Shown piece by piece: positions 14,016 through 51,828 of a DNA stretch of 64,000 bases. The notes beneath the pieces were generated by a model. That model ran no database searches. It was not told where the DNA came from and worked only from the letters and a program-made list of their open reading frames with translations. Every line of letters begins with the position of its first letter. The stretch's first letter is position 1. Source of the stretch: Candidatus Poribacteria bacterium (lineage in GTDB: Bacteria > Poribacteria > WGA-4E > UBA9662); assembly GCA_002709695.1 (NCBI GenBank), contig PAQF01000017.1:3051-67050 (forward strand), given 5' to 3'. The translations under genes and the position numbers were made by a program.

Positions 14016-15821
14016 ATGAACAATCTTATCAGTAGCCTCCAAATTGCGAAAAGAGCACTAAGCACTCAACGCCTAGGCTTATCAATTGCAGGCCACAACA
14101 TTTCCAATGTCAACACACCGAATTATGCCAGACAGCAAGCACTAGTTGAACCTGGTGTTAGCGGGGCCGGCATGGCAGGTGTTGAAATTACATATATCCG
14201 CCGAATTCAAGATAGAGTCGTTGATGAGAGACTTCGCCTTAACACTCAAGAACTCGCCAAGTGGAAAACCTTATCCGATCGACTAAACCAGATAGAAACT
14301 TTCTTTAGTGACCTTTCGGGAACAGGATTGTCGGGAGCACTCTCCGATTTTTGGAACAGTTGGCAAGATCTAACTGTTTCACCTGAATCGGAATCATCCA
14401 GACTCGTTACCGTTCAACGGGGTGTTGTTCTAGCATCCCGCTTGCAGGATATGAATGCAGGAATCGAAGAATCACACGCGGATTTGGATGCGGAGATCAA
14501 CCGAAAAATCACCGAAATCAATGAAATTACAACTCGGGTTGGAAAATTAAATCAAGAGATTGTTTCAATCGAGCTCTCTGGTAGTCAAGCAAACGACCAA
14601 CGAACTCTACGTGACTATCAAATGGCTCAACTATCAGAACTAATTAATTTCCGAACAACCGAGCGCGTGGATGGTTCCGTTCAGGTTTTCGTTGACAGCC
14701 TGTCGTTAGTTGAAGGAAACCGAGTAACAGAATTGGTTGCCGAACTTACCCCTGATTCCGAAGGAGGATCGACCAGCACTGCCTCAACAAAAGTCCTTGC
14801 TAGCAATAACGAAGTCAACATTTCAGAAGGAGCTTTGGCTGGACTGATCGAAGCCCGAGATCAACATTTACCTACTATGTTAACTCGGATGAAGACACTA
14901 TCAGAAACTTTAATTACACAAGTCAACAAACTGCACAAAACAGGCTATGGACTTGACAATTCATCAAGTCTAGATTTTTTCTCAGGGGCAAGTATCGAGG
15001 ATATTACCGTCAATTCACAATTACTTACTGATCCCAAGAAATTGGGAGTATCAGGCGCTACGGGCACACCAGGTAATAACGCAAGAGCACTGGAAATCGC
15101 CCAGTTACGGACATCTCTCACTATAGGCGCTACTGTAATTCCCAATGACCGACAGACTCTGACTGTTGAGAGTACTGATGGATGGGCTAAAAATGACATA
15201 TTAGGAGTAGCAGGTTCATCCGATTTAACTGGAGCCAGCACATGGGCTCGAATTCTAAAGATTGACAGTGGAACTCAAGTTACAGTTGAATTGTTTCAAA
15301 ATCCTACAACAAAAACATTCGATAAGAAATTCGACTTTACACAAGAAGATGGCTCAACTACAGTTCTTACTAATAAAGTATACCGTGACGCAGCCGGTAA
15401 TTACCTAACTGTTGATCCTAATCCATCCGACGATAAAGATCTAGACCAGCTGGTGGCACTCTCCGAAGGCGAAGAAGGAAAGCTCGAGGAATTGTGGAGT
15501 GCAACGGGCAAAAGTTCCGTCATGACAGCAAACCCGCAAACATTTACGTCAAATGAAACATTCACTGAAGGAACACAAACTTTCAGTGATTACTTTGCCA
15601 GTATGTATAGTTTCATTGGAACACAAAGCCAACAAGCCCAAAGAAATTCTGACAATACTGAACTCCTTGTTCAGCAACTCACAGACTACCGTGAAAAAGT
15701 CTCAGGCGTCTCTCTGGACGAAGAAATGGCTAACCTGATACAATTTCAACGTGCGTTCGAAGCTTCAGCAAGATACATCAGAGTAGTTGATGAAATGCTA
15801 TCGACACTGATGAACATGTAG
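14016..15821 (+). CDS. flgK: Flagellar hook-associated protein 1 FlgK
   Basis: 601 aa; N-terminus MNNLISSLQIAKRALSTQRLGLSIAGHNISNVNTPNYARQ and C-terminus MANLIQFQRAFEASARYIRVVDEMLSTLMNM are FlgK hallmarks. Confidence 0.85.
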   Translation: MNNLISSLQIAKRALSTQRLGLSIAGHNISNVNTPNYARQQALVEPGVSGAGMAGVEITYIRRIQDRVVDERLRLNTQELAKWKTLSDRLNQIETFFSDLSGTGLSGALSDFWNSWQDLTVSPESESSRLVTVQRGVVLASRLQDMNAGIEESHADLDAEINRKITEINEITTRVGKLNQEIVSIELSGSQANDQRTLRDYQMAQLSELINFRTTERVDGSVQVFVDSLSLVEGNRVTELVAELTPDSEGGSTSTASTKVLASNNEVNISEGALAGLIEARDQHLPTMLTRMKTLSETLITQVNKLHKTGYGLDNSSSLDFFSGASIEDITVNSQLLTDPKKLGVSGATGTPGNNARALEIAQLRTSLTIGATVIPNDRQTLTVESTDGWAKNDILGVAGSSDLTGASTWARILKIDSGTQVTVELFQNPTTKTFDKKFDFTQEDGSTTVLTNKVYRDAAGNYLTVDPNPSDDKDLDQLVALSEGEEGKLEELWSATGKSSVMTANPQTFTSNETFTEGTQTFSDYFASMYSFIGTQSQQAQRNSDNTELLVQQLTDYREKVSGVSLDEEMANLIQFQRAFEASARYIRVVDEMLSTLMNM

Positions 15822-15841
15822 GACATAAAGGAACCAAAATT

Positions 15842-16759
15842 ATGCGAGTAACACACAAAAGTATTACCTATAAAGCCATCGTCAATATGCAAAGAAGCCT
15901 CCGGCAAGTTGAAGGGAAAACAGATGAAATTTCGACAGGCCGAAAAATCTCCTTACCATCGGACGATCCATCCCAAGCTACCCGTGCATTAGGATACCAA
16001 CAAAAGATCGCTCAAAGCCAACAATACTCACGTAATATGGATACCGTAGTTGACCGATTGAACCAAACAGAATCAGCTCTCGGAGAAATTAACGGATCTG
16101 TCGTGCAAATCAAAGAAATTGCTTTAACTTTAAAAGATCCATCTATTACAGCAGAAGAATTGAATAACGCATTTGAAAAACTCAGTCAACTCAAGGAACA
16201 ACTTGTAAAACTTGGAAATACAAAAGTGGGTGATCAGTACATTTTTGGCGGTAGTAATACAACTTCCAGATCTTTCGAACTCACAGATGATGGCCAAATC
16301 CTCTACCGCGGCAACACATCTGAAATCAACGTAGAAATGGGTGACAACATATCAATAACTACAAACATTCCAGGAACAACAATATTTAGCATGCAAGCTA
16401 CTACGGCAGGTATTATTACCGATAATGGTGTTTTTGGGTCCTTAGATACCCTAATGCAGGTAGCACAAGGAGGCGAACCACCAGCTGATTTTGATAATGT
16501 GTTAGACGAAATTGACGGACTAAATAATACAGTCATTAACGCACGAGCAATCAACTCAAACCGAGGGTTCCGTGCCGAGTCAGCACAAGAATCATTATCA
16601 GCAGAACAAACTAGTGTTGAAGGAGTTTTAGCCAGTATCATGGAAACCGATACAGCATTGGCTCTAACAGAACTCCTATCCTTACAGGAAGCTTATCAGT
16701 TGACTCTTAACGTAGTAAACAAATCTTTTCAACGTTCTCTAGTGGACGTCCTCGGTTAA
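15842..16759 (+). CDS. flgL: Flagellar hook-associated protein 3 FlgL
   Basis: 305 aa; flagellin-like N-terminus (ISTGRKISLPSDDPSQATRAL) and C-terminus (ALALTELLSLQEAYQLTLNVVNKSFQRSLVDVL). Confidence 0.8.
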   Translation: MRVTHKSITYKAIVNMQRSLRQVEGKTDEISTGRKISLPSDDPSQATRALGYQQKIAQSQQYSRNMDTVVDRLNQTESALGEINGSVVQIKEIALTLKDPSITAEELNNAFEKLSQLKEQLVKLGNTKVGDQYIFGGSNTTSRSFELTDDGQILYRGNTSEINVEMGDNISITTNIPGTTIFSMQATTAGIITDNGVFGSLDTLMQVAQGGEPPADFDNVLDEIDGLNNTVINARAINSNRGFRAESAQESLSAEQTSVEGVLASIMETDTALALTELLSLQEAYQLTLNVVNKSFQRSLVDVLG

Positions 16760-16912: not shown

Positions 16913-18811
16913 TCACCAATCCTTAAACGGGAAAATGTTTGTATTGGCTAAGATACCATAGATACTCCATAGACTCCCCAATACGAATTCACCAAGTACC
17001 ATCCCTAAGAAAAAAGGGGAAAATCTTCGGTGCACTCCCAATCCACCATGTTTAAGAACTACCCATTTGACTAAAGTTGCAACCAAGAGGGACAGCCACA
17101 GCCAGTTCATACACCAATCATCTGCACCAGATACAGCATAACCAACAGCATGAAAAGGCCACCAGAAGAATTTCATTCGACAAAACATCAGGATAAATGT
17201 AAAAACCATTCCAACCCCAATAAACATAGCTTCCAAGAATCTAGGACCTGAAGGATGATTCATCTGCTGCTGTAATTTCCGGTAAGGTTCCCAGCCAAAC
17301 CCACCACCAGAACCAAAATGGTACGAATCATGTGCATATGCCCAAAACGAAGAAACAGATCCTACAATGATAGCCAAGATTATTGAGATTATGAGTGGGC
17401 TGGATCCAAAACCAGATCGATCAGCTAATTTAAACGCTTCGAGTTGGTGAGGCATTGCATGACTACGATGTGCTCGATTAAAGAAAAAGAAGAACGAGAG
17501 TACCGTCAAATTTTGCCCACCTAGAAATCGGGTGCCTAAGCATGTTGCCAATGTGTAATCAGCCCCCATAATATGCAGGTCATGAGCAGGAGCTCCCGAT
17601 TCAGCTCGCATTCTTGTAATCCCTATGGACAAAAAATAGTAAATCAAAAAAAAAGCAACAGCTATCCAAATGCTCAATCCCATCTTGTGAGAAAACCCAA
17701 CAAGGTACGCTAAACCAAGAACAATTCCGAGTACCGCATTCCGATACCTCATCGGCTCATTAGATTCATCTAGTCCAGAGTGACCCACTACTACATGTTT
17801 TAGAATTCGCGTTAAATATTTCCGGCTAGTCCACACAGCAAATATAGATAATCCCAAATAGGCACCAAGGGACTGTTGACGATCGTATGGAAACCCAGGT
17901 AACGATCTCATGCCGAGAATTGCCCCCAGCACATGCTGTAACTTACGGAATAGAAAAAAGAACCAACATGAAAATGACAGATCTATCGGCATGAAAAACC
18001 CAAGTCCAATAACAAATGGATAAATCGAAAAGCGTATTGTCCCAAGAGCATTCCAAGGTTTTTCAGTAAATAAATAGCCAATATTTCGAAACCGCACACC
18101 AATGACAGGAACACTTGGGATGAAATAACTCAACCCATTAACAACATTCAACATGGCAACTAAGATAAATGCGAACCAAAAGAGTCTATTACTGAAAAAT
18201 TGTGTCCCGCTGTTCTGCGTCATGGCAAAAGGAAGCTCAATAATCGGATAAGCCAGTTTTTCATTTTCCGTCCACTTTTTGCGCAAGATAACGTTTATAC
18301 ATACCATAACAAATAGAAGTGCAACGATAAAAGTCGTCCACCACAACATTGGTGGCACCCATGCTTTAAATTTCACGAGACTATAAAGCGTTGATTCCCC
18401 TTCGTAATACCCTTCCAGAACCAACTTGTCTTGAATGGTCAACCATTCTGGAATGTAGCGAAAAAAGAGATCTCTCCACTCATTTTCCGGCGTTTCAAAC
18501 CAATAAGCGTGACCAATCAAAGGAACAAGAATTTGCCCAAAATCGTGTGAAGCAACGACGCTCCCCATACACAACAAGATATAAATTGTGAGCAATTCGC
18601 TTTGTGTCAATGTCCAATCAGGCTGAATATTTTTTATCAACCAGTTTAGCAATATAATTACAAACAGACAAAAAATGACATTAAAAAAAAGCGACATTGT
18701 AGTTGGAAACAATCCCCACCAAACCATTTCTGTGTAGATAATCCAGTAGGAATTGAGAGGGATTAACAGAAGTGAAATCAAAACAGATCGGCGGGTTATA
18801 TTATGCGACAT
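16913..18811 (-). CDS. Polytopic membrane protein of unknown function (paralog of 46060..48012), 632 aa
   Basis: At least 12 predicted TM helices; shares a long collinear similarity with the 650-aa protein at 46060..48012 (for example PAHDLHIMGADY...RAHRSHAMPHQLEAFKLADRSG versus PAHDLYNAGPDL...SYRAHPMPHQLEALKLAHQTR; WPFHAVGYAVSG versus WPLHPVGYVVSS). No recognised catalytic motif. Confidence 0.6.
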   Translation of the reverse strand: MSHNITRRSVLISLLLIPLNSYWIIYTEMVWWGLFPTTMSLFFNVIFCLFVIILLNWLIKNIQPDWTLTQSELLTIYILLCMGSVVASHDFGQILVPLIGHAYWFETPENEWRDLFFRYIPEWLTIQDKLVLEGYYEGESTLYSLVKFKAWVPPMLWWTTFIVALLFVMVCINVILRKKWTENEKLAYPIIELPFAMTQNSGTQFFSNRLFWFAFILVAMLNVVNGLSYFIPSVPVIGVRFRNIGYLFTEKPWNALGTIRFSIYPFVIGLGFFMPIDLSFSCWFFFLFRKLQHVLGAILGMRSLPGFPYDRQQSLGAYLGLSIFAVWTSRKYLTRILKHVVVGHSGLDESNEPMRYRNAVLGIVLGLAYLVGFSHKMGLSIWIAVAFFLIYYFLSIGITRMRAESGAPAHDLHIMGADYTLATCLGTRFLGGQNLTVLSFFFFFNRAHRSHAMPHQLEAFKLADRSGFGSSPLIISIILAIIVGSVSSFWAYAHDSYHFGSGGGFGWEPYRKLQQQMNHPSGPRFLEAMFIGVGMVFTFILMFCRMKFFWWPFHAVGYAVSGADDWCMNWLWLSLLVATLVKWVVLKHGGLGVHRRFSPFFLGMVLGEFVLGSLWSIYGILANTNIFPFKDW

Positions 18812-18886: not shown

Positions 18887-19693
18887 TTACTGCCAAGAAT
18901 TGTGCCAGACAAGAGGATTTTGTTCGTCATTTCCCAGTAAATCACCAATTTCCAGCGATTCAAACAAGTCTTGCGGTAATATATTTCGTTTACCATTAAA
19001 ACAACTACCATCCGGCATAAAAGCACACGTCATAGCACGGCGATATTTATTGGTCATGTTAGCACCAGCACCATGTGCACAAAGACCATTGTGCCACACA
19101 ATCGATCCCGCGGGGCACGGAACTGGTACAGGATCAATGTCTCTCCACTCTGGATAGAGATTAAAAAGTTCGCCAACATTATGTCCAATACCAACGCTAT
19201 TATCAAATCGAGCGGTTTTATGAGACCCTGGTATGTACCACATACAGCCATTTTCCAGTGTTGCATCATCAAGCGCCACCCAAAACGAAATCGCGTCGCG
19301 CGAATCAAACGACCAATACGGGACATCAAGATGCCAAGCTGTAGGATTTCCATGCGGAGGCTTAATAAGAGCTTGGTCGTGCCAAACACGAATGCCTTCT
19401 GCTCCAATCAAATCGCTTGTTAACTTCCCAAGTCGCGGATCATAGACCAATCCACGCACAGCATCATTTGTGTCAGCCAATCTAAGACATTGGGTAAAAA
19501 CACGAGCATAAAAAGCCTGTGGGTCCCCTTGATTGGTTAAATGCTCAACCGATCCTCCTAATCGATCGGCAACAGCAGCATCAACACATTGACGCCACAT
19601 CTCTAATTCAACGTCATCAAAAAAACCTTCAACTACCAAAAATCCATGTTCATGATACGACTCAATCTGAGTAGCCGTAAGTTCATTTATCAT
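18887..19693 (-). CDS. Phytanoyl-CoA dioxygenase (PhyH) family Fe(II)/2-oxoglutarate oxygenase
   Basis: 268 aa; WHLDVPYW...H...D and distal H (WHNGLCAHGAGAN) give a PhyH-type His-x-Asp...His facial triad. Confidence 0.65.
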   Translation of the reverse strand: MINELTATQIESYHEHGFLVVEGFFDDVELEMWRQCVDAAVADRLGGSVEHLTNQGDPQAFYARVFTQCLRLADTNDAVRGLVYDPRLGKLTSDLIGAEGIRVWHDQALIKPPHGNPTAWHLDVPYWSFDSRDAISFWVALDDATLENGCMWYIPGSHKTARFDNSVGIGHNVGELFNLYPEWRDIDPVPVPCPAGSIVWHNGLCAHGAGANMTNKYRRAMTCAFMPDGSCFNGKRNILPQDLFESLEIGDLLGNDEQNPLVWHNSWQ

Positions 19694-19767: not shown

Positions 19768-20835
19768 TTACTGAATTTCAATTTCACTACCTACTTCTTG
19801 GCTCCGGTAAATACCATCCAGAATTTGCATTACCTGTAATGATTGCTCTGGAGGAACAGGTGAAGGTGCCCCATCGAGAATCGCTTGGGCAAATTCAATG
19901 CATTCTTGTGCATGTGCTTCTTCAAGATTTTCAGGAAAATCTGTCAGGGTTTTTTCCTTATATTCTTTTTCCTCCAAGTCCGACCATAAAAACTCACACT
20001 TGGGCCAATGACATCCAGCCTTTGTTCCATAAAGCCACATCTGCATATCTTCACCAGTAGTACGATGATGGAGAAGCCAACTGATTTCAATGACAAGCGT
20101 TGCTCCATTTTCAAACCTAATAAATGCAGAAGCAAAATCTTCAACATCATACTCTGAGGGAATTTCACTCTTTCCTCCTCCGGTAAAGGCTCCTTCTTGA
20201 TGTGCTATTTCCGCCCTAGAGACACCACTCACGGCTACAGGTTTGGGATTTCCCATCAGCCACAGTGTGAGATCTAAAATATGGACTCCGATATCAATAC
20301 AAGGTCCTCCTCCACTATTCTTTTTCAGAATAAAGCCAGGACCAGTCGGTGCTCCCCAACGACGAAGCATCCAACTCCTAGCATGATAAATATCACCTAG
20401 AATCCCTGTATCAATCTCAGCTTTCATAGCCTTAGAATTCGCTTGAAAACGAAAATGCTGCGCTGTCATCAGTAACTTACCAGATCGATCGCGAGCTGCA
20501 ATCATGTTTTTAACATCCTCAGGCGTCGGTGCCAACGGTTTTTCGCATATCACATGCTTCCCTCCTTCAAGGCCACCAATAGAAAGAGGTGCATGGTACA
20601 TATTTGGCGTGCAAACATCAATAATATCAATATCCGGATCAGAGAAAAGCTCTGAAGGGTCAGTAGTCAGCTTAGTCACCTTATGTTCTTTACCCCAGTT
20701 CTGCAGAACATCCTCTCGAATATCACAACCAGCAACAATTTCCGCATTTTCAGAAGCATTCCAACCAGGAATATGAGTATTTGAGATACCACCAACACCA
20801 ATGATTGCAACCTTTAAGATCTTAGACACTACCAA
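19768..20835 (-). CDS. Gfo/Idh/MocA family NAD(P)-dependent oxidoreductase
   Basis: 355 aa; N-terminal Rossmann motif VAIIGVGGISNTHIPGW plus Gfo/Idh/MocA C-terminal alpha/beta domain. Confidence 0.8.
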   Translation of the reverse strand: MVVSKILKVAIIGVGGISNTHIPGWNASENAEIVAGCDIREDVLQNWGKEHKVTKLTTDPSELFSDPDIDIIDVCTPNMYHAPLSIGGLEGGKHVICEKPLAPTPEDVKNMIAARDRSGKLLMTAQHFRFQANSKAMKAEIDTGILGDIYHARSWMLRRWGAPTGPGFILKKNSGGGPCIDIGVHILDLTLWLMGNPKPVAVSGVSRAEIAHQEGAFTGGGKSEIPSEYDVEDFASAFIRFENGATLVIEISWLLHHRTTGEDMQMWLYGTKAGCHWPKCEFLWSDLEEKEYKEKTLTDFPENLEEAHAQECIEFAQAILDGAPSPVPPEQSLQVMQILDGIYRSQEVGSEIEIQ

Positions 20836-20923: not shown

Positions 20924-21739
20924 TCATAGGACTTCCTTGGTAAAAGTGTAAACCGGTCTAAGCCAAGAGGCAAAAAACACACCATTAGCATACAGAAAAT
21001 AGAGTATCTTTAATATTACAATCGCTGCCAAAAGAATAAATTGAATCAGGATAAAAGCCAAATCAACCCTACCAAAACTCTGGCCTCGTAATGTCGCCTG
21101 CCTATTAGTCCCATCAACGGAAAAACCACGACATTCAATCACCTGACTCAAATTAGTGGCTCTTCGAATACTATTAGTTAAAATTGGGCGTATCGCATTC
21201 AAAAAACCCGCAAACGTACGAAGTACATTGAAGCGAAAATAGCGAAATCCACGTAACCTTTGAGACTGAATAACAATTTTTGCATCAGAAACAACAAACG
21301 GTACATATTGAATTGCAACAGTTGTCATAAAGGCAAGGCCATAAGGCACCCGTAGTTTAATTAATCCTACCAACAAATCTCTTACCTTAGTGGTCGAAAT
21401 AACGTAATAACCAACACTAATCGAAGTACTAAACCGTAGTGATTGGATCATACCATGTACTAAACCTTCGCGATAAAAATGGACATTGTCAACTAAGGTA
21501 AAAAGTATTGTCCGCGGAAATCGATCATAAAATATCGCTTGGCTATAAATCGTGCCCCAGGTTCCAATCACCAAAACTCCTGTGAATATACCAATTTTTT
21601 TCCAAGATCGAATTGCAGTTACCGCTAGCCCAAACACAGAGAAAAAGCAAAACGAAAGCATAATTGGGCTATCAAGAAGCACCATCAAAACACCAATAGT
21701 AGCAAGTAAAATAATTTTTGTTCGGGGATCAAACGCCAT
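20924..21739 (-). CDS. Energy-coupling-factor transporter transmembrane (T) component, EcfT/CbiQ-like
   Basis: 271 aa with 5-6 TM helices; LIKLRVPYGLAFMTTVAIQYVPFVVSDAKIVIQSQRLRGF...IECRGFSVDG resembles the EcfT coupling-helix/ARG region. No adjacent EcfA ATPase in the window. Confidence 0.5.
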   Translation of the reverse strand: MAFDPRTKIILLATIGVLMVLLDSPIMLSFCFFSVFGLAVTAIRSWKKIGIFTGVLVIGTWGTIYSQAIFYDRFPRTILFTLVDNVHFYREGLVHGMIQSLRFSTSISVGYYVISTTKVRDLLVGLIKLRVPYGLAFMTTVAIQYVPFVVSDAKIVIQSQRLRGFRYFRFNVLRTFAGFLNAIRPILTNSIRRATNLSQVIECRGFSVDGTNRQATLRGQSFGRVDLAFILIQFILLAAIVILKILYFLYANGVFFASWLRPVYTFTKEVL

Positions 21740-29322: not shown

Positions 29323-30771
29323 ATGCCTCCCCAGAACCTCATTTTCATTTTATCGGACCAACACAATCGTAATATCACCGGTGTTTATGGAGATCCTATC
29401 ATACAGACACCGAACCTCGATCGACTTGCCGAACGTGGAACAACGTTTAGCAACGCTTACACCAACTGCCCTATTTGTGTCCCAGCTCGAGCATCTCTAG
29501 CAACTGGCCGCTACGTACACCAAATTCGGTATTGGGATAACGCGTTTCCATATGACGGCCGCATCGAAAGTTGGGGACACCGTTTAAAACAACAGAATTA
29601 TCAAGTTGACTCCATAGGCAAACTACATTTTCGTGGATCCCATGATGACAATGGTTTCTGCCAAGAAATAGATCCATTATATGTGGTAGATGGACGAGGT
29701 GATGTATTAAGCTGTATCCGTAACAATCCTCCTACCCGTGACTTCCGACAAGGAATCAATAATGCGGGAGCTGGAAATTCAACTTATTTGCAGTATGATG
29801 CCAACAATGCAGACCAAGCATGCCAATGGTTAACTCAGCACAAAAATGACCAGCATCCTTGGGTACTATTTTTGTCTTTTGTCTGCCCTCACCCACCATA
29901 TATTTCTCCGCCAGAATTTTATCAACTCTATCCGAAAGATCAAATCCCACTTCCTGCTCAGTGGCACACAGATGAATGGCCGAATCATCCTGCCATCGAA
30001 CGATTCCGAGACTTTTTCGCTTATTCAGGGATTTGTGATGAGGAAAAACTAAGAAATTTCCTCGCAGCTTATTACGGTTTATGCACCTATCTAGATCAGC
30101 AAATCGGGCGAGTTCTGCAAACCATGGAAGAACATGACCTCCTCAATAATAGCCGGATCATTTATACTTCCGACCATGGTGAATCGCTCGGCACACGCGG
30201 TTTGTTTGGCAAATTTACTATGTATGAGGAATCAGCTGCAGTTCCCTTCATAATAGCCGGTGCCGATGTCCCTAAAAACAAAGTGGTTGAAACTCCTATT
30301 TCTTTGATAGATTGCTTTCCGTCCATTATAGAAGCCGTTGGTGGACGCCTAATTGAAGAAGACGAGAATCTACCAGGGAAATCCATTTGGGAAACCGCCC
30401 AGACATCTAACCAAAACGGATTAGCTTTTAGCGAATATCATGCTGTTGGCTCAAAGAATGCTATCTACATGCTTAGAAACAGACAACACAAATATATTTA
30501 CTACGTTGATGAGCCAGTACAACTCTTTGATTTACAAACTGATCCTGAAGAAACCCAAGATCTATCAAAGCTGCCTGAATATCAGGAAACACTCCAAACT
30601 TTCGAGAAAGAACTGAAGAAGATTGTTGACCCTAAAGGGATCGATACAATAGCTAAAGCAGATCAAAAATCAAAAATCCGCGAAAACGGGGGAGAGACGG
30701 CAATTCGTCAAAGAGGCGCATTTGATAATTCTCCCGTCCCAGGAGAGAATCCAATTTTTCGTCAACATTAA
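29323..30771 (+). CDS. Sulfatase (arylsulfatase family); no obvious signal peptide
   Basis: 482 aa; N-terminal NLIFILSDQHN and sulfatase signature C-V-P-A-R-ASLATGRY (CxPxR formylglycine target motif); C-terminal sulfatase fold. Confidence 0.8.
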   Translation: MPPQNLIFILSDQHNRNITGVYGDPIIQTPNLDRLAERGTTFSNAYTNCPICVPARASLATGRYVHQIRYWDNAFPYDGRIESWGHRLKQQNYQVDSIGKLHFRGSHDDNGFCQEIDPLYVVDGRGDVLSCIRNNPPTRDFRQGINNAGAGNSTYLQYDANNADQACQWLTQHKNDQHPWVLFLSFVCPHPPYISPPEFYQLYPKDQIPLPAQWHTDEWPNHPAIERFRDFFAYSGICDEEKLRNFLAAYYGLCTYLDQQIGRVLQTMEEHDLLNNSRIIYTSDHGESLGTRGLFGKFTMYEESAAVPFIIAGADVPKNKVVETPISLIDCFPSIIEAVGGRLIEEDENLPGKSIWETAQTSNQNGLAFSEYHAVGSKNAIYMLRNRQHKYIYYVDEPVQLFDLQTDPEETQDLSKLPEYQETLQTFEKELKKIVDPKGIDTIAKADQKSKIRENGGETAIRQRGAFDNSPVPGENPIFRQH

Positions 30772-44303: not shown

Positions 44304-45111
44304 ACGGCTCGACTTAGTAAGTACAATGTACATCTATGTAGCTTAAAATTCTCTCACTTGATGAAGTAACCCCGAATCGATAGTCCCATGGACGCACCAA
44401 CCTTCAGATTTCAAAGGAATAACAGTATCAGCCAACACGACCCTCAAATTTCGTTATCTGGCGAAAATTTTGTATAGGCAGACTAAAAACCGAACTTATG
44501 ATCACCTTTTTAGCACAAATTCACTTTAGCATAAAGGAAGACAAAGACTCAATCAATCTGTAGGTGATTGACAAATGCTTCTTCATGATTCGACTCAATA
44601 CTCAATTGAGGAAACGTAATAAGCGAAATATCAATAGTTTCATCAATCCATTCCTGAAACCAACGATCGAATTGATGTTCAGATTCTACCAGTTTCCGAT
44701 AAGTGCTTCAGCACCAGGATTGGGGCAAGCCATGAGGCACGACGAATGATATCATACCGCTGTTAAAATCAACAATTTCTTCTGTTCGTCTAGACGATTC
44801 GATTCCCCACTGCTTATAAACATCTAACTTTCCTTCTTTATATCAGGAAGAAAAAAGTACAACTCCCATGTGTGCCTCCTTATATATATGCGACCTAAAT
44901 ACCAGAACAATCTTGATCAATTTTTACCAACTACATACGAACGACACCTACGAAACAAAAACGCTATAGTACGAACCAAGACGGTTTCCATACTCACCAT
45001 AAAGCTTAATTAAAGTATCCCTCTGGCACCAAGTGTTTTTCGAACAAACTCCATGTATACTTTACCCTTTCAATCCGACGACAAAGCCTCTACACTCCCC
45101 CCCTAAAAATA

Positions 45112-45795
45112 CTAGGAAACCATAGATTTTGACATCCAAGGACCAGTTATAGCCAGAGTTAAACCTGGTGATTGAATATTAACAAAAAGTATTGTCCCAT
45201 CTGGTGAAAAAGTAGCGCCTGCCAATTCAGATTTCTGTGGCATAGCGTTTTTTGCAAACTGATACAATTCTCTATTCGAGGTAATCCCAATCAAATTCTG
45301 GTCTTCAGATCCATCCTCACAAACAACCCAATCTCCCCATGGAGACATGGTAATGTTATCCCCCATATCAAGAATTCGGCTTTGGTTCAGTTCGACAAAA
45401 AGTTCCAATTTGGCGGGATTCTTTTCCTCACCAGTAGTCCCTTCATACCTACTTGGAATATAACGCCAAACTTGCCCTTTCCGGTTTGGTCCACCAGCAG
45501 TACAAACAAAAAATATTGTTTGGCCATCAAAAAACACCCCTTCTCCTCTAGCAAAAACAGCGGCACCTTTATACAAACCCTGTTTTCTCAAATCGTCTTT
45601 TGGAGATTCGACTTCCTCGACATCAATCCAGCGTATATCGAACAACACCCCCAACACTATTCCTTCCAATCGAAATTTGAAAATACGATTATACCAAGAC
45701 AATGTTTCAGCTTTAAACACGTTAAGGTCAAGTAACCGCCAATTGCAAGTGTTAGCACTCGGCATATCTCGAATTGCCAGAGCCTCAAGTCCCAC
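45112..45795 (-). CDS. PhoX/DUF839-family beta-propeller protein, C-terminal portion only (likely truncated or decaying)
   Basis: 227 aa; NQSRILDMGDNITMSPWGDWVVCEDGSEDQNLIGITSNRELYQFAKNAMPQKSELAGATFSPDGTILFVNIQSPGLTLAITGPW matches, from memory, the conserved C-terminus of PhoX-like/DUF839 proteins, which are normally about 450-700 aa with a Tat signal. No N-terminal half is found upstream. Confidence 0.4.
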   Translation of the reverse strand: MGLEALAIRDMPSANTCNWRLLDLNVFKAETLSWYNRIFKFRLEGIVLGVLFDIRWIDVEEVESPKDDLRKQGLYKGAAVFARGEGVFFDGQTIFFVCTAGGPNRKGQVWRYIPSRYEGTTGEEKNPAKLELFVELNQSRILDMGDNITMSPWGDWVVCEDGSEDQNLIGITSNRELYQFAKNAMPQKSELAGATFSPDGTILFVNIQSPGLTLAITGPWMSKSMVS

Positions 45796-46059: not shown

Positions 46060-48012
46060 ATGAAGAAAAAAACGCAAATCCCCACAAAAAAAAATAAAAT
46101 CTCAATAACCCTCAGGTCGGTTATTATTGGCTTGGTCTTAATTCCACTTAATAACTATTGGGTTCTGAATCTCAGTTACGTTTGGGATTCCAACCGTCCA
46201 ACGAGTCTTGCACTTCTTTTCAATGTTATATTCAGCTTAATCATTCTCATTGCTGTTAACGAATTCTTATACCGATTTAGTCCTAAGTTAGTTTTTAGCC
46301 AGACAGAACTGATTACCATCTACATCATGCTTTGTCAAGCATCTGTGTTTGCTGGACGTGACATGATTCAAGTCCTAATTCCACTAATGAGCAACGGTTT
46401 TTGGTATGCTACCAGCGAGAACGAATGGAATCAGCTTTTCCACCATCATCTACCTCCTTGGTTAGTGGTAGAAGACAAGGAACTTTTACACGGATTTTAT
46501 CAAGGACAATCAACCCTGTACTCGATTGCACATATATCCGCTTGGATCAAGCCAGGACTTATATGGCTAGGCTTCTGCTTGGTTCTAGGTATTACCATGC
46601 TCTGTCTAAATGTATTATTACGAAAACAATGGCAGGAACATGAAAAACTGACATACCCTATCGTCCAACTTCCTTATGAAATGACACAATCACGCGAAAC
46701 AAATACCCAACACATTAATGCAAACCAGCGTTTCTTTTCTAGTCAACTTGTCTGGTTCGGAGCAGCGACAGCCGGAATTTTAAATCTCCTTTACAGTTTA
46801 CACCAAATCGATCCATCTTTCCCCAATATACCACTGTATAAATCATTCCACCTACTTGAAAAACCTTGGAGTGCAATGAATAACCCTGGACTGAGGATCA
46901 GCTTTTTTCCGTTCGCAATTGGGGTTGGATTTCTGATCCCTCTTGATCTTGGTTTCTCCTGTTGGTTTTTTCACTTGTTCTGGCATTTCGAGAGAGTCAT
47001 AGGTGATGTATTCGGTTGGCGTAGCGCAATCGGTTTTCCAAGAGAGATGGCACAAATCCGTGGTGCATGGATTGGGATCTTTGTCTTCACTATCTGGATG
47101 GGACGCGATCATTTTAAAACTTTACTCTCCAGAACACAAACAGACCTAAAAATAACAACACATGAAGCGTTAAGATACAGAACAGCAATCATAGGAACAA
47201 CTGTGGGATTATCTCTAATAACACTATTTTGTTACCACGCAGGAATGTTAGCTTGGATTGCTTTGCTATTCTTTACTATTTACTTTGCCATGTCTATTAC
47301 TATCACACGAATACGTGCCGAACTTGGACCACCAGCACATGATCTCTACAATGCAGGACCGGATTTACTTTTAATCGAGACTTTTGGAACCCATCGAATT
47401 AATGCTCGAAACCTGTCTATACTTTCCTTATTTTTCTGGCTTAACCACCTATCATATCGAGCCCATCCCATGCCACACCAACTGGAGGCCCTCAAACTTG
47501 CGCATCAAACTCGAATTAACCAGTCGCACATTTTTCTAATCATAATCCTAGCTATTATGATAGGTGCTTTTTCAGCCATGTGGGGGCACTTGCACATTTC
47601 CTACAAAATCGGTTTAGAACAGGCGCGATCATGGTATGCCAGAGCGGCCTTCACAAGATTAGCAGGATGGATTAATAATCCCAACAGTACACAAGCAAGT
47701 GGCTTGTTATTTACCACAGGTGGGTTTGTTTTCTCAATTGCACTATTGGTCTTACGCCTCAGGTTTGTCCAATGGCCATTACATCCCGTTGGATATGTAG
47801 TATCCAGCTGGTGGACATTCACAGGTCTTTGGTTTCCGATCCTGATAAGTTGGATTATCAAACACGTCCTCCTATCCTATGGAGGAGTTCGGAATTATCG
47901 ACGTGCAACACCGTTTTTTTTGGGATTAATCGTCGGCGACGTTGTCGTAGCTTCAACCATAAGCATTTTAGGACTTTTATTCAATTTTAGTGTACGTTAC
48001 TTGAGTTGGTAA
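46060..48012 (+). CDS. Polytopic membrane protein of unknown function (paralog of 16913..18811), 650 aa
   Basis: Collinear similarity with the 632-aa protein on the minus strand (see that entry); N-terminal basic tail followed by at least 12 TM helices. Confidence 0.6.
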   Translation: MKKKTQIPTKKNKISITLRSVIIGLVLIPLNNYWVLNLSYVWDSNRPTSLALLFNVIFSLIILIAVNEFLYRFSPKLVFSQTELITIYIMLCQASVFAGRDMIQVLIPLMSNGFWYATSENEWNQLFHHHLPPWLVVEDKELLHGFYQGQSTLYSIAHISAWIKPGLIWLGFCLVLGITMLCLNVLLRKQWQEHEKLTYPIVQLPYEMTQSRETNTQHINANQRFFSSQLVWFGAATAGILNLLYSLHQIDPSFPNIPLYKSFHLLEKPWSAMNNPGLRISFFPFAIGVGFLIPLDLGFSCWFFHLFWHFERVIGDVFGWRSAIGFPREMAQIRGAWIGIFVFTIWMGRDHFKTLLSRTQTDLKITTHEALRYRTAIIGTTVGLSLITLFCYHAGMLAWIALLFFTIYFAMSITITRIRAELGPPAHDLYNAGPDLLLIETFGTHRINARNLSILSLFFWLNHLSYRAHPMPHQLEALKLAHQTRINQSHIFLIIILAIMIGAFSAMWGHLHISYKIGLEQARSWYARAAFTRLAGWINNPNSTQASGLLFTTGGFVFSIALLVLRLRFVQWPLHPVGYVVSSWWTFTGLWFPILISWIIKHVLLSYGGVRNYRRATPFFLGLIVGDVVVASTISILGLLFNFSVRYLSW

Positions 48013-49008: not shown

Positions 49009-51828
49009 CTACCTCAAAATGACCATTTTCTTTACGGCATCGTAATCTAAAGTGGTTAATCGGTAAAAGTACACACCACTTGATACCGATTCGCCCAATT
49101 GATTTTTGCCATCCCAGTAAATCGCCCGGTTAGTATCAGTATAAAAGCCGATCTTTTTGTACCCTAGATCAATAGTCCGAATAACCTTACCTTCAAAATC
49201 GTACAGTCTCAACGTCACCGAAGTTGGCTCCGCCAGTTGAAACGGGATCCACGTCTCAGGATTAAATGGGTTCGGATAATTCGAAAGCAATTGCGTTTGG
49301 CGTGGTAATTCACCAAATCCATCCGTTTTAACCTTAACATGGGATGATATCTTCAAACCTGAATCAGGTTGAACAGAAAAAGGTTCCGGCTCGACTTCTA
49401 AACCAAAATCGACATAATCAAAAATGAATACAGCACCTGCATCTTTTCCCGCACTATCGTCCCCATGAATTCCAACAATAATCACCTCATCACTCATCCC
49501 TAACGTACCACCAAAACGATCGTACGGAGCCGACCCTTCCGAGATTTTGGCCGAGATGACCGGCGACCAAAACTCTCCTATACGAGTAAAGGAATAAACT
49601 GACCCAGTACTTGGTATGGGAGGCTCATCCTCATCCTCTACCGTATTATGATCGGGTGCACCAACGACAACTGCCAAATCATTTAAAGCAACAGCAAGGC
49701 CGAAATGGGATCCCACACCAGGTTCATCAGCAATAAACTTGGTTTGTTGCGACCAATTCCCTCTCTGATAGATAAAGGCGTAAGCTGAACCCGCATCTGG
49801 TGCAGAGCCGATCTCAGCTACAGTCACATCGTCTAACCAAGCACCAATAATAACAGTATCTTTATCAATAGCCACAGCAATACCAAATTGATCTCCCATG
49901 GCCGCATCAGCTGCAATTAATTTAGTCTGCTGTCCCCATTTGTCTCCTTGTTTAACAAAAACATAAGCAGCTCCAGCATCAATACCAGCAACACCATTCT
50001 TCGGTGCCCCAACAATAACAGTCTGCTGATATACAGCAACTGAATAACCAAACGTATCTCCCGGTGTTGAATCGTTAGCCTCCAATTTGGCTTGCTGACG
50101 CCAAGTTGCGTTGTCACGCACAAAAACAAAAGCTGAACCAGCTTTCTGGTTGGTTCCATGTGCACCAACAACGACTATATCTTCATCAATAGCCACAGAA
50201 TAGCCAAACAAATCTCCTGTGCCTTGTCCACTAATCTTAGCTTGCTGCTTCCAAACACCCGATGTTCTGGCAAAAAGATACACTGCACCAGAATCAATTC
50301 CAGTATCATCCATACCATAAGCCCCAACGAGAATGGTGTCTTTATCAACTGCAACAGCATGCCCAAACTGTGCTCCCATAGCTGCGTCATCAGCCGTCAA
50401 AACTGATTGCTTATCCCATCGGATTTTCCCTTTATCATCAGTTAAACTAGCATATACATATACTGATCCGGTGTTGATCCCACGTCTATCATCCTGCCTA
50501 GAGCCCACAACTACAGTGTTTTCGGTGATTGCCACTGAATAACCAAATTCGTTCTCTGAAGAACTGACAGGATCGATCAATTTGGCCAATTTGAGCCATT
50601 TACCGCCCTGTTTGATATAAATGTAAGCAGCTCCTGAAAGCGCCCCACCCGCACTATGAGAAATTGAACCAACAACTACTGTATTATCATTAACGGCAAC
50701 AGCGTAGCCAAAACTATCACCTTCCATCGCATCATTAGGCAATAATCTCGCATTCCGTATCCACTGTCCGTTACGTTCCCTAAAAATGTAAACAGCCCCT
50801 GTCCCTCCACGTTTAGTCTGTTTTTCCCATTCGTCATTATCATCCCGAGGTGATCCGACAATTATCATCTGATTCCCTAACGAAATAGACTGGCCAAAAC
50901 TGGAGCCGGACTGGGCAATTAATGCAGCACCATGCTGTCGCCAAACACCATCTTGGAGACGAAATATATACACCGCACCATTTCCCGTGGATCCACCTTT
51001 TGGAACTCCTACGGCGAATATCTCTCCATTCGTTTTCACTGTATGACCAAAATTGTGCTTTTCACGTGTATCTCGGCCAATAACTTTAGCTTCCTGCACC
51101 CATGATTCGCCAATTTTCCGAAATACATATACAGCACCAGAATCGCTATTAATCCCCTTACCATCTTCTCTGATAGCACCCACAACAGCGACATCCCCAC
51201 TAATCGCAACCGAAGCTCCAAACCAATCGAAAGAGTCGCCGTCATTTGCTATCAATTTGGCTTGTTGTATCCATGAATTCCCCTGTCGAGCAAATATGTA
51301 GGCAGCACCCGAGTCTCCCTGTGGTGCATTGGCAGAATAGGCACCAACAATCAGGTGTTTACCATCGAAATCTACCGCATTGCCAAAACGATCACTTTCC
51401 TCTGTATCATTTGCATTCACATTTGACTGACGAACCCATCGATCACCAATTCGCGTATAAACAAACACAGCACCATAATTCTTGCCAACCTCGCTGTACC
51501 TTGGCATACCTACAACCAAAGTATCACCTTTAAGTGCAATTACGTTTCCAAATTCATCATTTGGCTTGAGATCTTTCGGAGCAAGCCTAGCCTGCTCCAT
51601 CCACCCAATTTCATCACGAACGAAAACAAAAATCGCACCCGTGTTTTTGCCAGTCCCTGGCACCCCAACCATTGCAACCCTACCATCTACAACCACACTC
51701 TTCCCCATATGATCATCAAGGACTGATTCAACCAAAATTTTTGTTGAATCAGCATAAACCCAATTAACAAGCGTAATAGCAATAAAAGTAAGGGCAACTT
51801 GTAACCGAAATCCCACTCGCGTTAACAC
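49009..51828 (-). CDS. FG-GAP/integrin-alpha-like repeat protein (939 aa) with type IX secretion system C-terminal sorting domain
   Basis: Signal peptide; about 14 tandem ~55-aa units of the form ...D.FG.SVAI..D..VVGAP......G.AYVF......W.Q.AKL.A.D; C-terminus LLSNYPNPFNPETWIPFQL...VTLRLYDFEGKVIRTIDLGYKKIGFY...GESVSSGVYFYRL is a textbook T9SS CTD (type A Por sorting domain). Confidence 0.7.
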   Translation of the reverse strand: MLTRVGFRLQVALTFIAITLVNWVYADSTKILVESVLDDHMGKSVVVDGRVAMVGVPGTGKNTGAIFVFVRDEIGWMEQARLAPKDLKPNDEFGNVIALKGDTLVVGMPRYSEVGKNYGAVFVYTRIGDRWVRQSNVNANDTEESDRFGNAVDFDGKHLIVGAYSANAPQGDSGAAYIFARQGNSWIQQAKLIANDGDSFDWFGASVAISGDVAVVGAIREDGKGINSDSGAVYVFRKIGESWVQEAKVIGRDTREKHNFGHTVKTNGEIFAVGVPKGGSTGNGAVYIFRLQDGVWRQHGAALIAQSGSSFGQSISLGNQMIIVGSPRDDNDEWEKQTKRGGTGAVYIFRERNGQWIRNARLLPNDAMEGDSFGYAVAVNDNTVVVGSISHSAGGALSGAAYIYIKQGGKWLKLAKLIDPVSSSENEFGYSVAITENTVVVGSRQDDRRGINTGSVYVYASLTDDKGKIRWDKQSVLTADDAAMGAQFGHAVAVDKDTILVGAYGMDDTGIDSGAVYLFARTSGVWKQQAKISGQGTGDLFGYSVAIDEDIVVVGAHGTNQKAGSAFVFVRDNATWRQQAKLEANDSTPGDTFGYSVAVYQQTVIVGAPKNGVAGIDAGAAYVFVKQGDKWGQQTKLIAADAAMGDQFGIAVAIDKDTVIIGAWLDDVTVAEIGSAPDAGSAYAFIYQRGNWSQQTKFIADEPGVGSHFGLAVALNDLAVVVGAPDHNTVEDEDEPPIPSTGSVYSFTRIGEFWSPVISAKISEGSAPYDRFGGTLGMSDEVIIVGIHGDDSAGKDAGAVFIFDYVDFGLEVEPEPFSVQPDSGLKISSHVKVKTDGFGELPRQTQLLSNYPNPFNPETWIPFQLAEPTSVTLRLYDFEGKVIRTIDLGYKKIGFYTDTNRAIYWDGKNQLGESVSSGVYFYRLTTLDYDAVKKMVILR

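Follow-up and report, generated by a model that had tools for sequence, protein, structure and literature searches.

To our knowledge, barley Yellow Stripe 1 (YS1, HvYS1) is the sole solved representative of the OPT/YSL family of transporters. Its mobile 'YS core' domain, which has a discontinuous helix and two hairpins of the helix-loop-helix type, is cradled by a scaffold domain made of inverted repeats; the protein is an H+ symporter with an elevator-type movement, in which protons are coupled via Asp446, Asp490 and Asp494 (PMC9691689). We analyzed a stretch of 64,000 nucleotides from a Candidatus Poribacteria bacterium (GenBank assembly GCA_002709695.1, contig PAQF01000017.1, positions 3,051 to 67,050 of the forward strand), hereafter the window, which encodes two large membrane proteins, here called A (16913..18811, minus strand, 632 aa) and B (46060..48012, plus strand, 650 aa). 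Both carry the Pfam domains DUF6785 and DUF6784, and the predicted fold of both matched that of YS1. The DUF6785+DUF6784 family is thus most likely a remote relative of the OPT/YSL superfamily (TC 2.A.67), recognizable at the level of predicted structure only.

Predicted fold and family membership

AlphaFold2 models of A and B were built separately, without templates, from 41-sequence alignments. The model of A had a pLDDT of 86.0 and that of B a pLDDT of 87.2, with a pTM of 0.90 in both cases. When the models were compared with 350,542 PDB chains by Foldseek, each yielded exactly two significant matches, both of which were barley YS1. Model A matched 7wsr_A (E = 5.4e-9) and 7wst_A (E = 1.4e-8) with TM-scores of 0.66-0.71, and model B matched 7wst_A (E = 1.6e-8) and 7wsr_A (E = 1.0e-7) with TM-scores of 0.64-0.71. 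In both comparisons the Foldseek probability was 1.00 and ~682 columns were aligned, near full length, at 11-13% identity and a root-mean-square deviation of 6.4-7.2 Å. The YS1 entries 7WSR and 7WST were released in November 2022, later than the AlphaFold2 training cut-off. Because no templates were used either, the agreement in fold is an independent prediction and the models are not copies of the YS1 structure. From these models, it is very probable that A and B have an OPT-type fold. The initial annotation had recognized no characterized transporter family in these proteins; the fold search supplied one, and gave no support to the membrane enzyme that had been offered as an alternative.

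The next matches in the Foldseek list were far weaker. BetP chains ranked third (E ~0.05, TM-score ~0.1), followed by unrelated transporters and membrane pyrophosphatases with TM-scores of 0.08-0.20, which we regard as noise. BetP/BCCT, APC/LeuT-fold, NAT, SLC4/SLC26, MFS and Nramp proteins are also polytopic, alpha-helical and secondary-transporter-like and appeared low in the list, but they do not share the fold of A and B (TM-scores of 0.08-0.20, E >= 0.05).

Other properties of A and B were also compared with those of OPT/YSL proteins. The sizes are similar (632-650 aa versus 678 aa in YS1), and the conserved polar motifs of A and B are placed by the models on broken helices and helix-loop-helix hairpins, as in the hairpins of the YS core. 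In contrast, the motifs themselves (RxRAExGxPxHD, HPMPHQLE, WPxHP and K582) differ from those of OPT proteins. The distribution of DUF6785 is also different, being confined to Poribacteria, Armatimonadota/Fervidibacteria, Abditibacteriota, BRC1 and one Chloroflexi metagenome-assembled genome (MAG), and its genes are found in the context of sugar and aromatic catabolic enzymes rather than of peptide or metal-chelate metabolism. YS1 has a dimer-forming C-terminal beta-strand and a Cys250-Cys671 disulfide.

Although A and B had been described as belonging to an unknown family, both matched DUF6785 (PF20581) and DUF6784 (PF20580) far above the Pfam gathering scores of 25 and 26.4 bits, respectively. 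For DUF6785, A scored 557 bits (E = 4e-167, profile positions 2-498 of 498) and B 522.6 bits (E = 1e-157, positions 1-498 of 498); for DUF6784, the scores were 101.7 bits (E = 3e-29) and 100.3 bits (E = 8e-29). In A, the DUF6785 region comprises residues 7-500 (17312..18793, minus strand, coordinates checked by translation), and the DUF6784 region (residues 529-626; 16934..17227, minus strand) belongs to the same fold unit and supplies its C-terminal helices. Both domains were present in 75 of 75 diverse family members, indicating that they constitute one protein unit. A word-indexed search returned at least 1,774 DUF6785 matches, and an exhaustive search returned at least 5,214 clusters at 50% identity (E <= 1e-3), of which 1,283 remained at E <= 1e-30. 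The named members came from Candidatus Poribacteria, Armatimonadota (Chthonomonadales and Candidatus Fervidibacteria), Abditibacteriota, BRC1 and the Chloroflexi MAG, and some already carry the NCBI name 'DUF6785 family protein'. In the literature searched, neither DUF6785 nor DUF6784 was mentioned by name in any paper. The family is already catalogued but uncharacterized, and a link to the OPT/YSL fold is not described in that literature.

A and B are real paralogs, and both genes are intact. The listing of open reading frames (ORFs) returned both genes with exactly the boundaries and the opposite strands first proposed, and the claimed spacing of 27 kb was measured as 27.2 kb. The two proteins were collinear from end to end in BLASTP (41% identity and 62% positives over 639 columns, E = 2e-174), which is far beyond chance, and their GC content (0.41) equalled the background (window mean of 0.405). 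No third copy of the family was found in the 64-kb window. The shared sequence blocks previously listed for the pair held with one exception. The PAHDL block (GAPAHDL in A, GPPAHDL in B), the MPHQLEA-type block (HAMPHQLEAFKLA in A, HPMPHQLEALKLA in B) and the WP-type block (WPFHAVGYAVS in A, WPLHPVGYVVS in B) were present in both, but HGG was found in A only and reads YGG in B. The prediction of at least 12 transmembrane helices was consistent with ~12 separate strongly hydrophobic segments in A (17 overlapping 19-residue windows with a Kyte-Doolittle hydropathy >= 1.5) and with ~20 helices of at least 8 residues in its model, several of which were broken, short or part of a hairpin.

Conserved residues and orthogroups

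To locate candidate functional residues, conservation was scored across 140 full-length representatives that were 32-49% identical to A, whose numbering is used here. The initial annotation, which described both as polytopic in the membrane and as sharing invariant charged and His residues, held on this point. The most conserved polar positions were E72 (E or D, 99%), S281 (99%), R402 (99%) and K582 (99%), followed by Q313, R400, E458 and H554 (96% each), E184 and D/E608 (93% each), R330 (92%), E404 (88%) and H410 (85%). With the exception of S281, these residues (E72, E184, Q313, R330, R400, R402, E404, H410, E458, H554, K582 and D/E608) are predicted to be membrane-embedded and are candidates for the substrate and proton site, by analogy with YS1.

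The motif RxRAExGxPxHD of A, RMRAESGAPAHD (R400-D411; 17579..17614, minus strand), contains G406, which was 99% conserved. In the AlphaFold2 model it occupies the end of helix 381-405 and part of an extended loop (406-416) that leads into helix 417-425. Helices 70-87 and 92-100 are joined by a short loop with a further G-H-D, which is less conserved. E404, H410, D411 and E458 fall on a helix-loop-helix and the helix that follows it, E458 being the last residue of HAMPHQLE (H451-E458; 17438..17461, minus strand). The corresponding motifs of B, read from the translation, were RIRAELGPPAHD (47308..47343, plus strand) and HPMPHQLE (47464..47487, plus strand). In the model, the two motif loops of A appear to resemble the pair of extended-loop hairpins in the YS core, and by analogy with the TM8-H6 hairpin of YS1 (PMC9691689) we infer that R400-D411 is a candidate substrate or proton site.

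A and B each belong to an orthogroup of their own across Poribacteria, and their closest relatives were all Candidatus Poribacteria (best identity of 92% for A and 96% for B). Orthologs of A with ~65% identity were found on many complete poribacterial chromosomes, and the B orthogroup contained members with 96, 88, 82 and 75% identity and then ~70% on dozens of complete chromosomes. The nearest loci came from pelagic and plume metagenomes: an Arabian Sea MAG (79%) and South Atlantic SAT10 (75%) for A, and a hydrothermal plume (82%) for B. A recent or local duplication was rejected on the basis of these separate orthogroups, and horizontal transfer was rejected on the same basis together with the GC content. 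The duplication is thus ancient, A and B having diverged before Poribacteria radiated. The sponge-associated poribacterial chromosome OZ251998.1 carries both types ~72 kb apart, and this spacing could be, together with the 27 kb in the window, either a loose conserved linkage or a coincidence. Extra DUF6785 copies were present in several genomes, and six loci contained two or three of them within 18 kb (three in one locus), indicating repeated local expansion of the family. The presence of several copies per genome is consistent with substrate diversification.

Proposed transport function and competing explanations

Transport, its direction, its coupling to protons and the class of substrate were inferred from the fold and the neighborhoods. 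On this basis, A and B would be OPT/YSL-fold secondary importers, probably H+-coupled, of mid-size hydrophilic organic solutes, an interpretation to which we assign a probability of roughly 0.7. The 'uncharacterized transporter' of the initial annotation remained the best-supported reading, and by analogy with YS1 A and B are probably transporters. That they import, with H+ coupling, is favored by a small degree, and a carbohydrate-derived substrate is a tentative suggestion that we rate well below even odds. Mechanistically, each protein would fold into one YS1-like unit, in which a mobile core is cradled by the scaffold. An elevator-type movement of the core, coupled to H+, would carry the solute inward, and the conserved acidic, basic and His residues may form the site for the substrate and the coupling ion within the core. 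The imported solutes would then pass to cytoplasmic catabolic enzymes.

The gene neighborhoods of relatives were examined at 84 loci, in which ORFs were called, clustered and the clusters annotated with Pfam. The contexts of DUF6785 showed patterns specific to each orthogroup. Among those sampled, DUF6785 was usually the sole membrane protein beside cytoplasmic-type enzymes. Catabolic contexts contained PhyH, GFO, 3-keto-disaccharide hydrolase, xylose-isomerase-like TIM barrel and Zn-ADH proteins. A PhyH gene was directly upstream and co-directional in the window and at six of the related loci, three of which contained four PhyH genes, GFO, ThuA and BNR_2 near DUF6785; in one large orthogroup PhyH was divergently upstream. 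Genes for Mo-hydroxylase, UbiD decarboxylase, FMN reductase and MetE-like (Meth_synt_2) proteins precede the 79% ortholog of A. At another poribacterial locus, DUF6785 lay within a 12-gene same-strand catabolic array that included GFO, TPP enzyme, PIG-L, AP_endonuc_2, DegT, 3HCDH, ADC and AKR genes. In Abditibacteriota, one DUF6785 copy was followed after 16 bp by a GH38 alpha-mannosidase gene and then by an FGGY sugar kinase gene, with GH43 upstream. The 82% ortholog of B adjoins a sugar ABC transporter and a sulfatase, and the 70% orthologs of B lie amid AroC, MgtE, PyrD-like and OTCase genes. A variable and mostly catabolic context, with DUF6785 as the lone membrane protein, is expected for a diversified family of importers.

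Several results weigh against import of organic solutes by an OPT-type protein. At the sequence level, Pfam OPT (PF03169) was matched neither by A and B (E <= 1) nor by the 75 diverse members (E <= 10), and NCBIfam, whose library includes TIGRFAM models of the OPT superfamily, contained no matching model for A or B at E <= 1. When PDB sequences were searched with phmmer or with three family profiles (A1, A2 and A3), the YS1 chains were never matched. The best matches to sequences outside the DUF family were noise, such as Rab GTPases at E ~2. The absence of OPT from the Pfam, NCBIfam and PDB profile results indicates that the relationship is visible in structure only. When the N-terminal and C-terminal halves of the family profile were aligned by hhalign, no significant internal repeat was found (best E-value of 0.32 over 24 columns); the repeats of YS1 are structural and not detectable in sequence, so this result weighs neither way. 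No experiment on any DUF6785 family member was found in the literature searched.

The neighborhoods also contributed opposing evidence. Many contexts were of a housekeeping type (UppS, RsgA, P-type ATPase, TrpD/TrpC), and gene order was unconserved even between close orthologs, which makes the inference of a substrate weak. PhyH is the most common Pfam domain in Poribacteria, accounting for >1.9% of genes (PMC3909097). Its enrichment beside DUF6785 was modest, with ~14% of the -1 and -2 positions (orthogroup-weighted) versus 5% of all ORFs in the same loci, and the two closest relatives in the orthogroup of A (79% and 75% identity) lacked it. We therefore rejected PhyH as a conserved partner, and its link to DUF6785 is recurrent but weak.

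A more far-reaching form of the importer interpretation is that DUF6785/DUF6784 proteins make up a separate prokaryotic branch of OPT-fold elevator transporters that import a class of solutes never shown for this fold, oligosaccharides, glycosides or other non-peptide organic compounds being candidates. We consider this possible, though somewhat unlikely. If it were true, the proteins would supply the cytoplasmic GFO-type oxidoreductases and PhyH dioxygenases that Poribacteria encode in unusually large numbers, as well as the glycoside hydrolases of Armatimonadota and Abditibacteriota, and would be a main route of carbon uptake in these poorly cultured phyla. We regard the DUF6785 family as a remote version of an established transporter type, not as a novel type of system. 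With the OPT/YSL fold, a family of more than 5,000 clusters that carries DUF labels only would gain a concrete mechanism, elevator-type and probably proton-coupled import, and a short list of candidate residues. Several copies of the family are encoded per genome in Poribacteria, both sponge-associated and pelagic, and in phyla related to Armatimonadota. A fold represented by a single structure would also be extended to a very distant bacterial branch, which could help to define its universal features, and the placement may help to explain how substrates are taken up for the expanded PhyH and GFO enzyme sets of these organisms.

Alternatively, A and B might be ordinary OPT-type transporters, too diverged for hidden Markov models, that carry oligopeptides, glutathione-like peptides or metal-chelate complexes. 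The fold is that of YS1, the conserved His/Asp/Glu-rich sites could bind metal chelates, and the B orthogroup is a core one with housekeeping surroundings, as would be expected for a general nutrient importer. In addition, the 75% ortholog of A is followed by a co-directional gene for an M60-like (enhancin-type) peptidase (L020:10061-12253); it was the sole peptide-related neighbor seen. However, the 75 members showed no OPT signal, most of the sampled neighbors were catabolic enzymes of the sugar or aromatic type, as opposed to peptidases or metallophore synthases, and no nicotianamine or siderophore genes were seen beside any copy in the sampled loci. We consider these classical substrates improbable.

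Export, flipping or an enzymatic role on an OPT-like architecture, such as the export of metabolites or polysaccharide precursors or the modification of envelope components, would be compatible with the sequence, which does not reveal the direction of transport, and with the large number of invariant positions (Pro, Trp, Gly and charged residues), a pattern also typical of membrane enzymes. A conserved same-strand block in Fervidibacterota/Armatimonadota (L085:1-10965, L086:1-10965 and L095:1-9986), which is closed by a DUF6785 gene (~61% identical), appears related to the envelope as well. It encodes a PEGA/CarboxypepD_reg protein (~630 aa), two CarboxypepD_reg proteins (~373 and ~145 aa), an LptC-like protein (~500 aa) and proteins of ~1100 and ~750 aa with no Pfam match, and it may be an envelope-spanning apparatus for capture or uptake. 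On the other hand, Foldseek returned no GT-C glycosyltransferase, polymerase/ligase or flippase, and nothing besides YS1 with a TM-score above 0.2. The enzymes encoded alongside have no signal peptides and are of cytoplasmic types that need an imported substrate, and the characterized OPT-family members in the cited literature (YS1/YSL and fungal OPTs) are importers. Such roles are accordingly very improbable. Finally, that the similarity to YS1 is a modeling artifact or convergence, and the family an unrelated new fold, is hardly credible: the low identity and high deviation of the structural alignment, the lack of sequence or profile support and the reliance on one program and one library would all allow it, but the match extends over ~600 residues, was reproduced for two proteins only 41% identical, stands ~6 orders of magnitude in E-value apart from the next one and came from confident template-free models, the YS1 structure being later than the training data of the network.

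Genes around the two copies

Directly upstream of A, as had been claimed, and on the same strand after a 75-bp gap, is a gene for a PhyH-family Fe(II)/2-oxoglutarate dioxygenase (18887..19693, minus strand; PF05721, E = 4e-38). It is preceded by genes for a GFO/IDH/MocA NAD(P) oxidoreductase (19768..20835, minus strand; Pfam match, 74-bp gap) and a CbiQ/ECF-T-like membrane protein (20924..21739, minus strand; PF02361, E = 1.5e-20, 88-bp gap), the latter heading the same-strand array. The catalytic domains of the GFO and PhyH proteins begin at their start, with no signal peptide, and PhyH is a probable co-transcribed cytoplasmic enzyme. A is probably co-transcribed with both of these genes, and it is uncertain whether the CbiQ-like gene is part of the same transcription unit. 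Genes for an ECF ATPase and an S-component were both absent from the positions adjacent to the CbiQ-like gene.

Flagellar hook-associated genes (14016-16759, plus strand), which by sequence resemble FlgK and FlgL, run toward the 3′ end of A in convergent orientation. These genes and the pelagic or plume origin of the nearest relatives suggest that the window belongs to a free-living, motile poribacterium.

B is a core gene of Poribacteria that is located amid unrelated genes. The flanks of B had been called decayed, and its divergent neighbor is indeed a short PhoX-like ORF (45112..45795, minus strand) that covers only the C-terminal part of the profile (304-515 of 515). The same short ORF was found beside the 82% ortholog of B in plume metagenomes (L096-L098:5940-6449), indicating that it encodes a conserved small protein, and fresh decay was therefore rejected. 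The ~800 bp at 44304-45111 contained no ORF of at least 72 aa and no Rfam match, and had a GC content of 0.389, slightly below the window mean. No Rfam family was detected in the window at the gathering threshold or upstream of B at E <= 1, and promoter and terminator scans around A and B gave counts at the level of shuffled sequence.

Two further observations were made in the window and the related loci. In a Fervidibacter-related contig (L087:14985-18959 and L088:14985-18959), the MutS gene was split by an intein that carries a LAGLIDADG homing endonuclease. In the window, large FG-GAP-repeat proteins (49009-51828, minus strand; 29323-30771, plus strand) end in a C-terminal fn3/FlgD_ig-like module, which was also present in the most common neighbor cluster (56 members, spread over 41 of the related loci).

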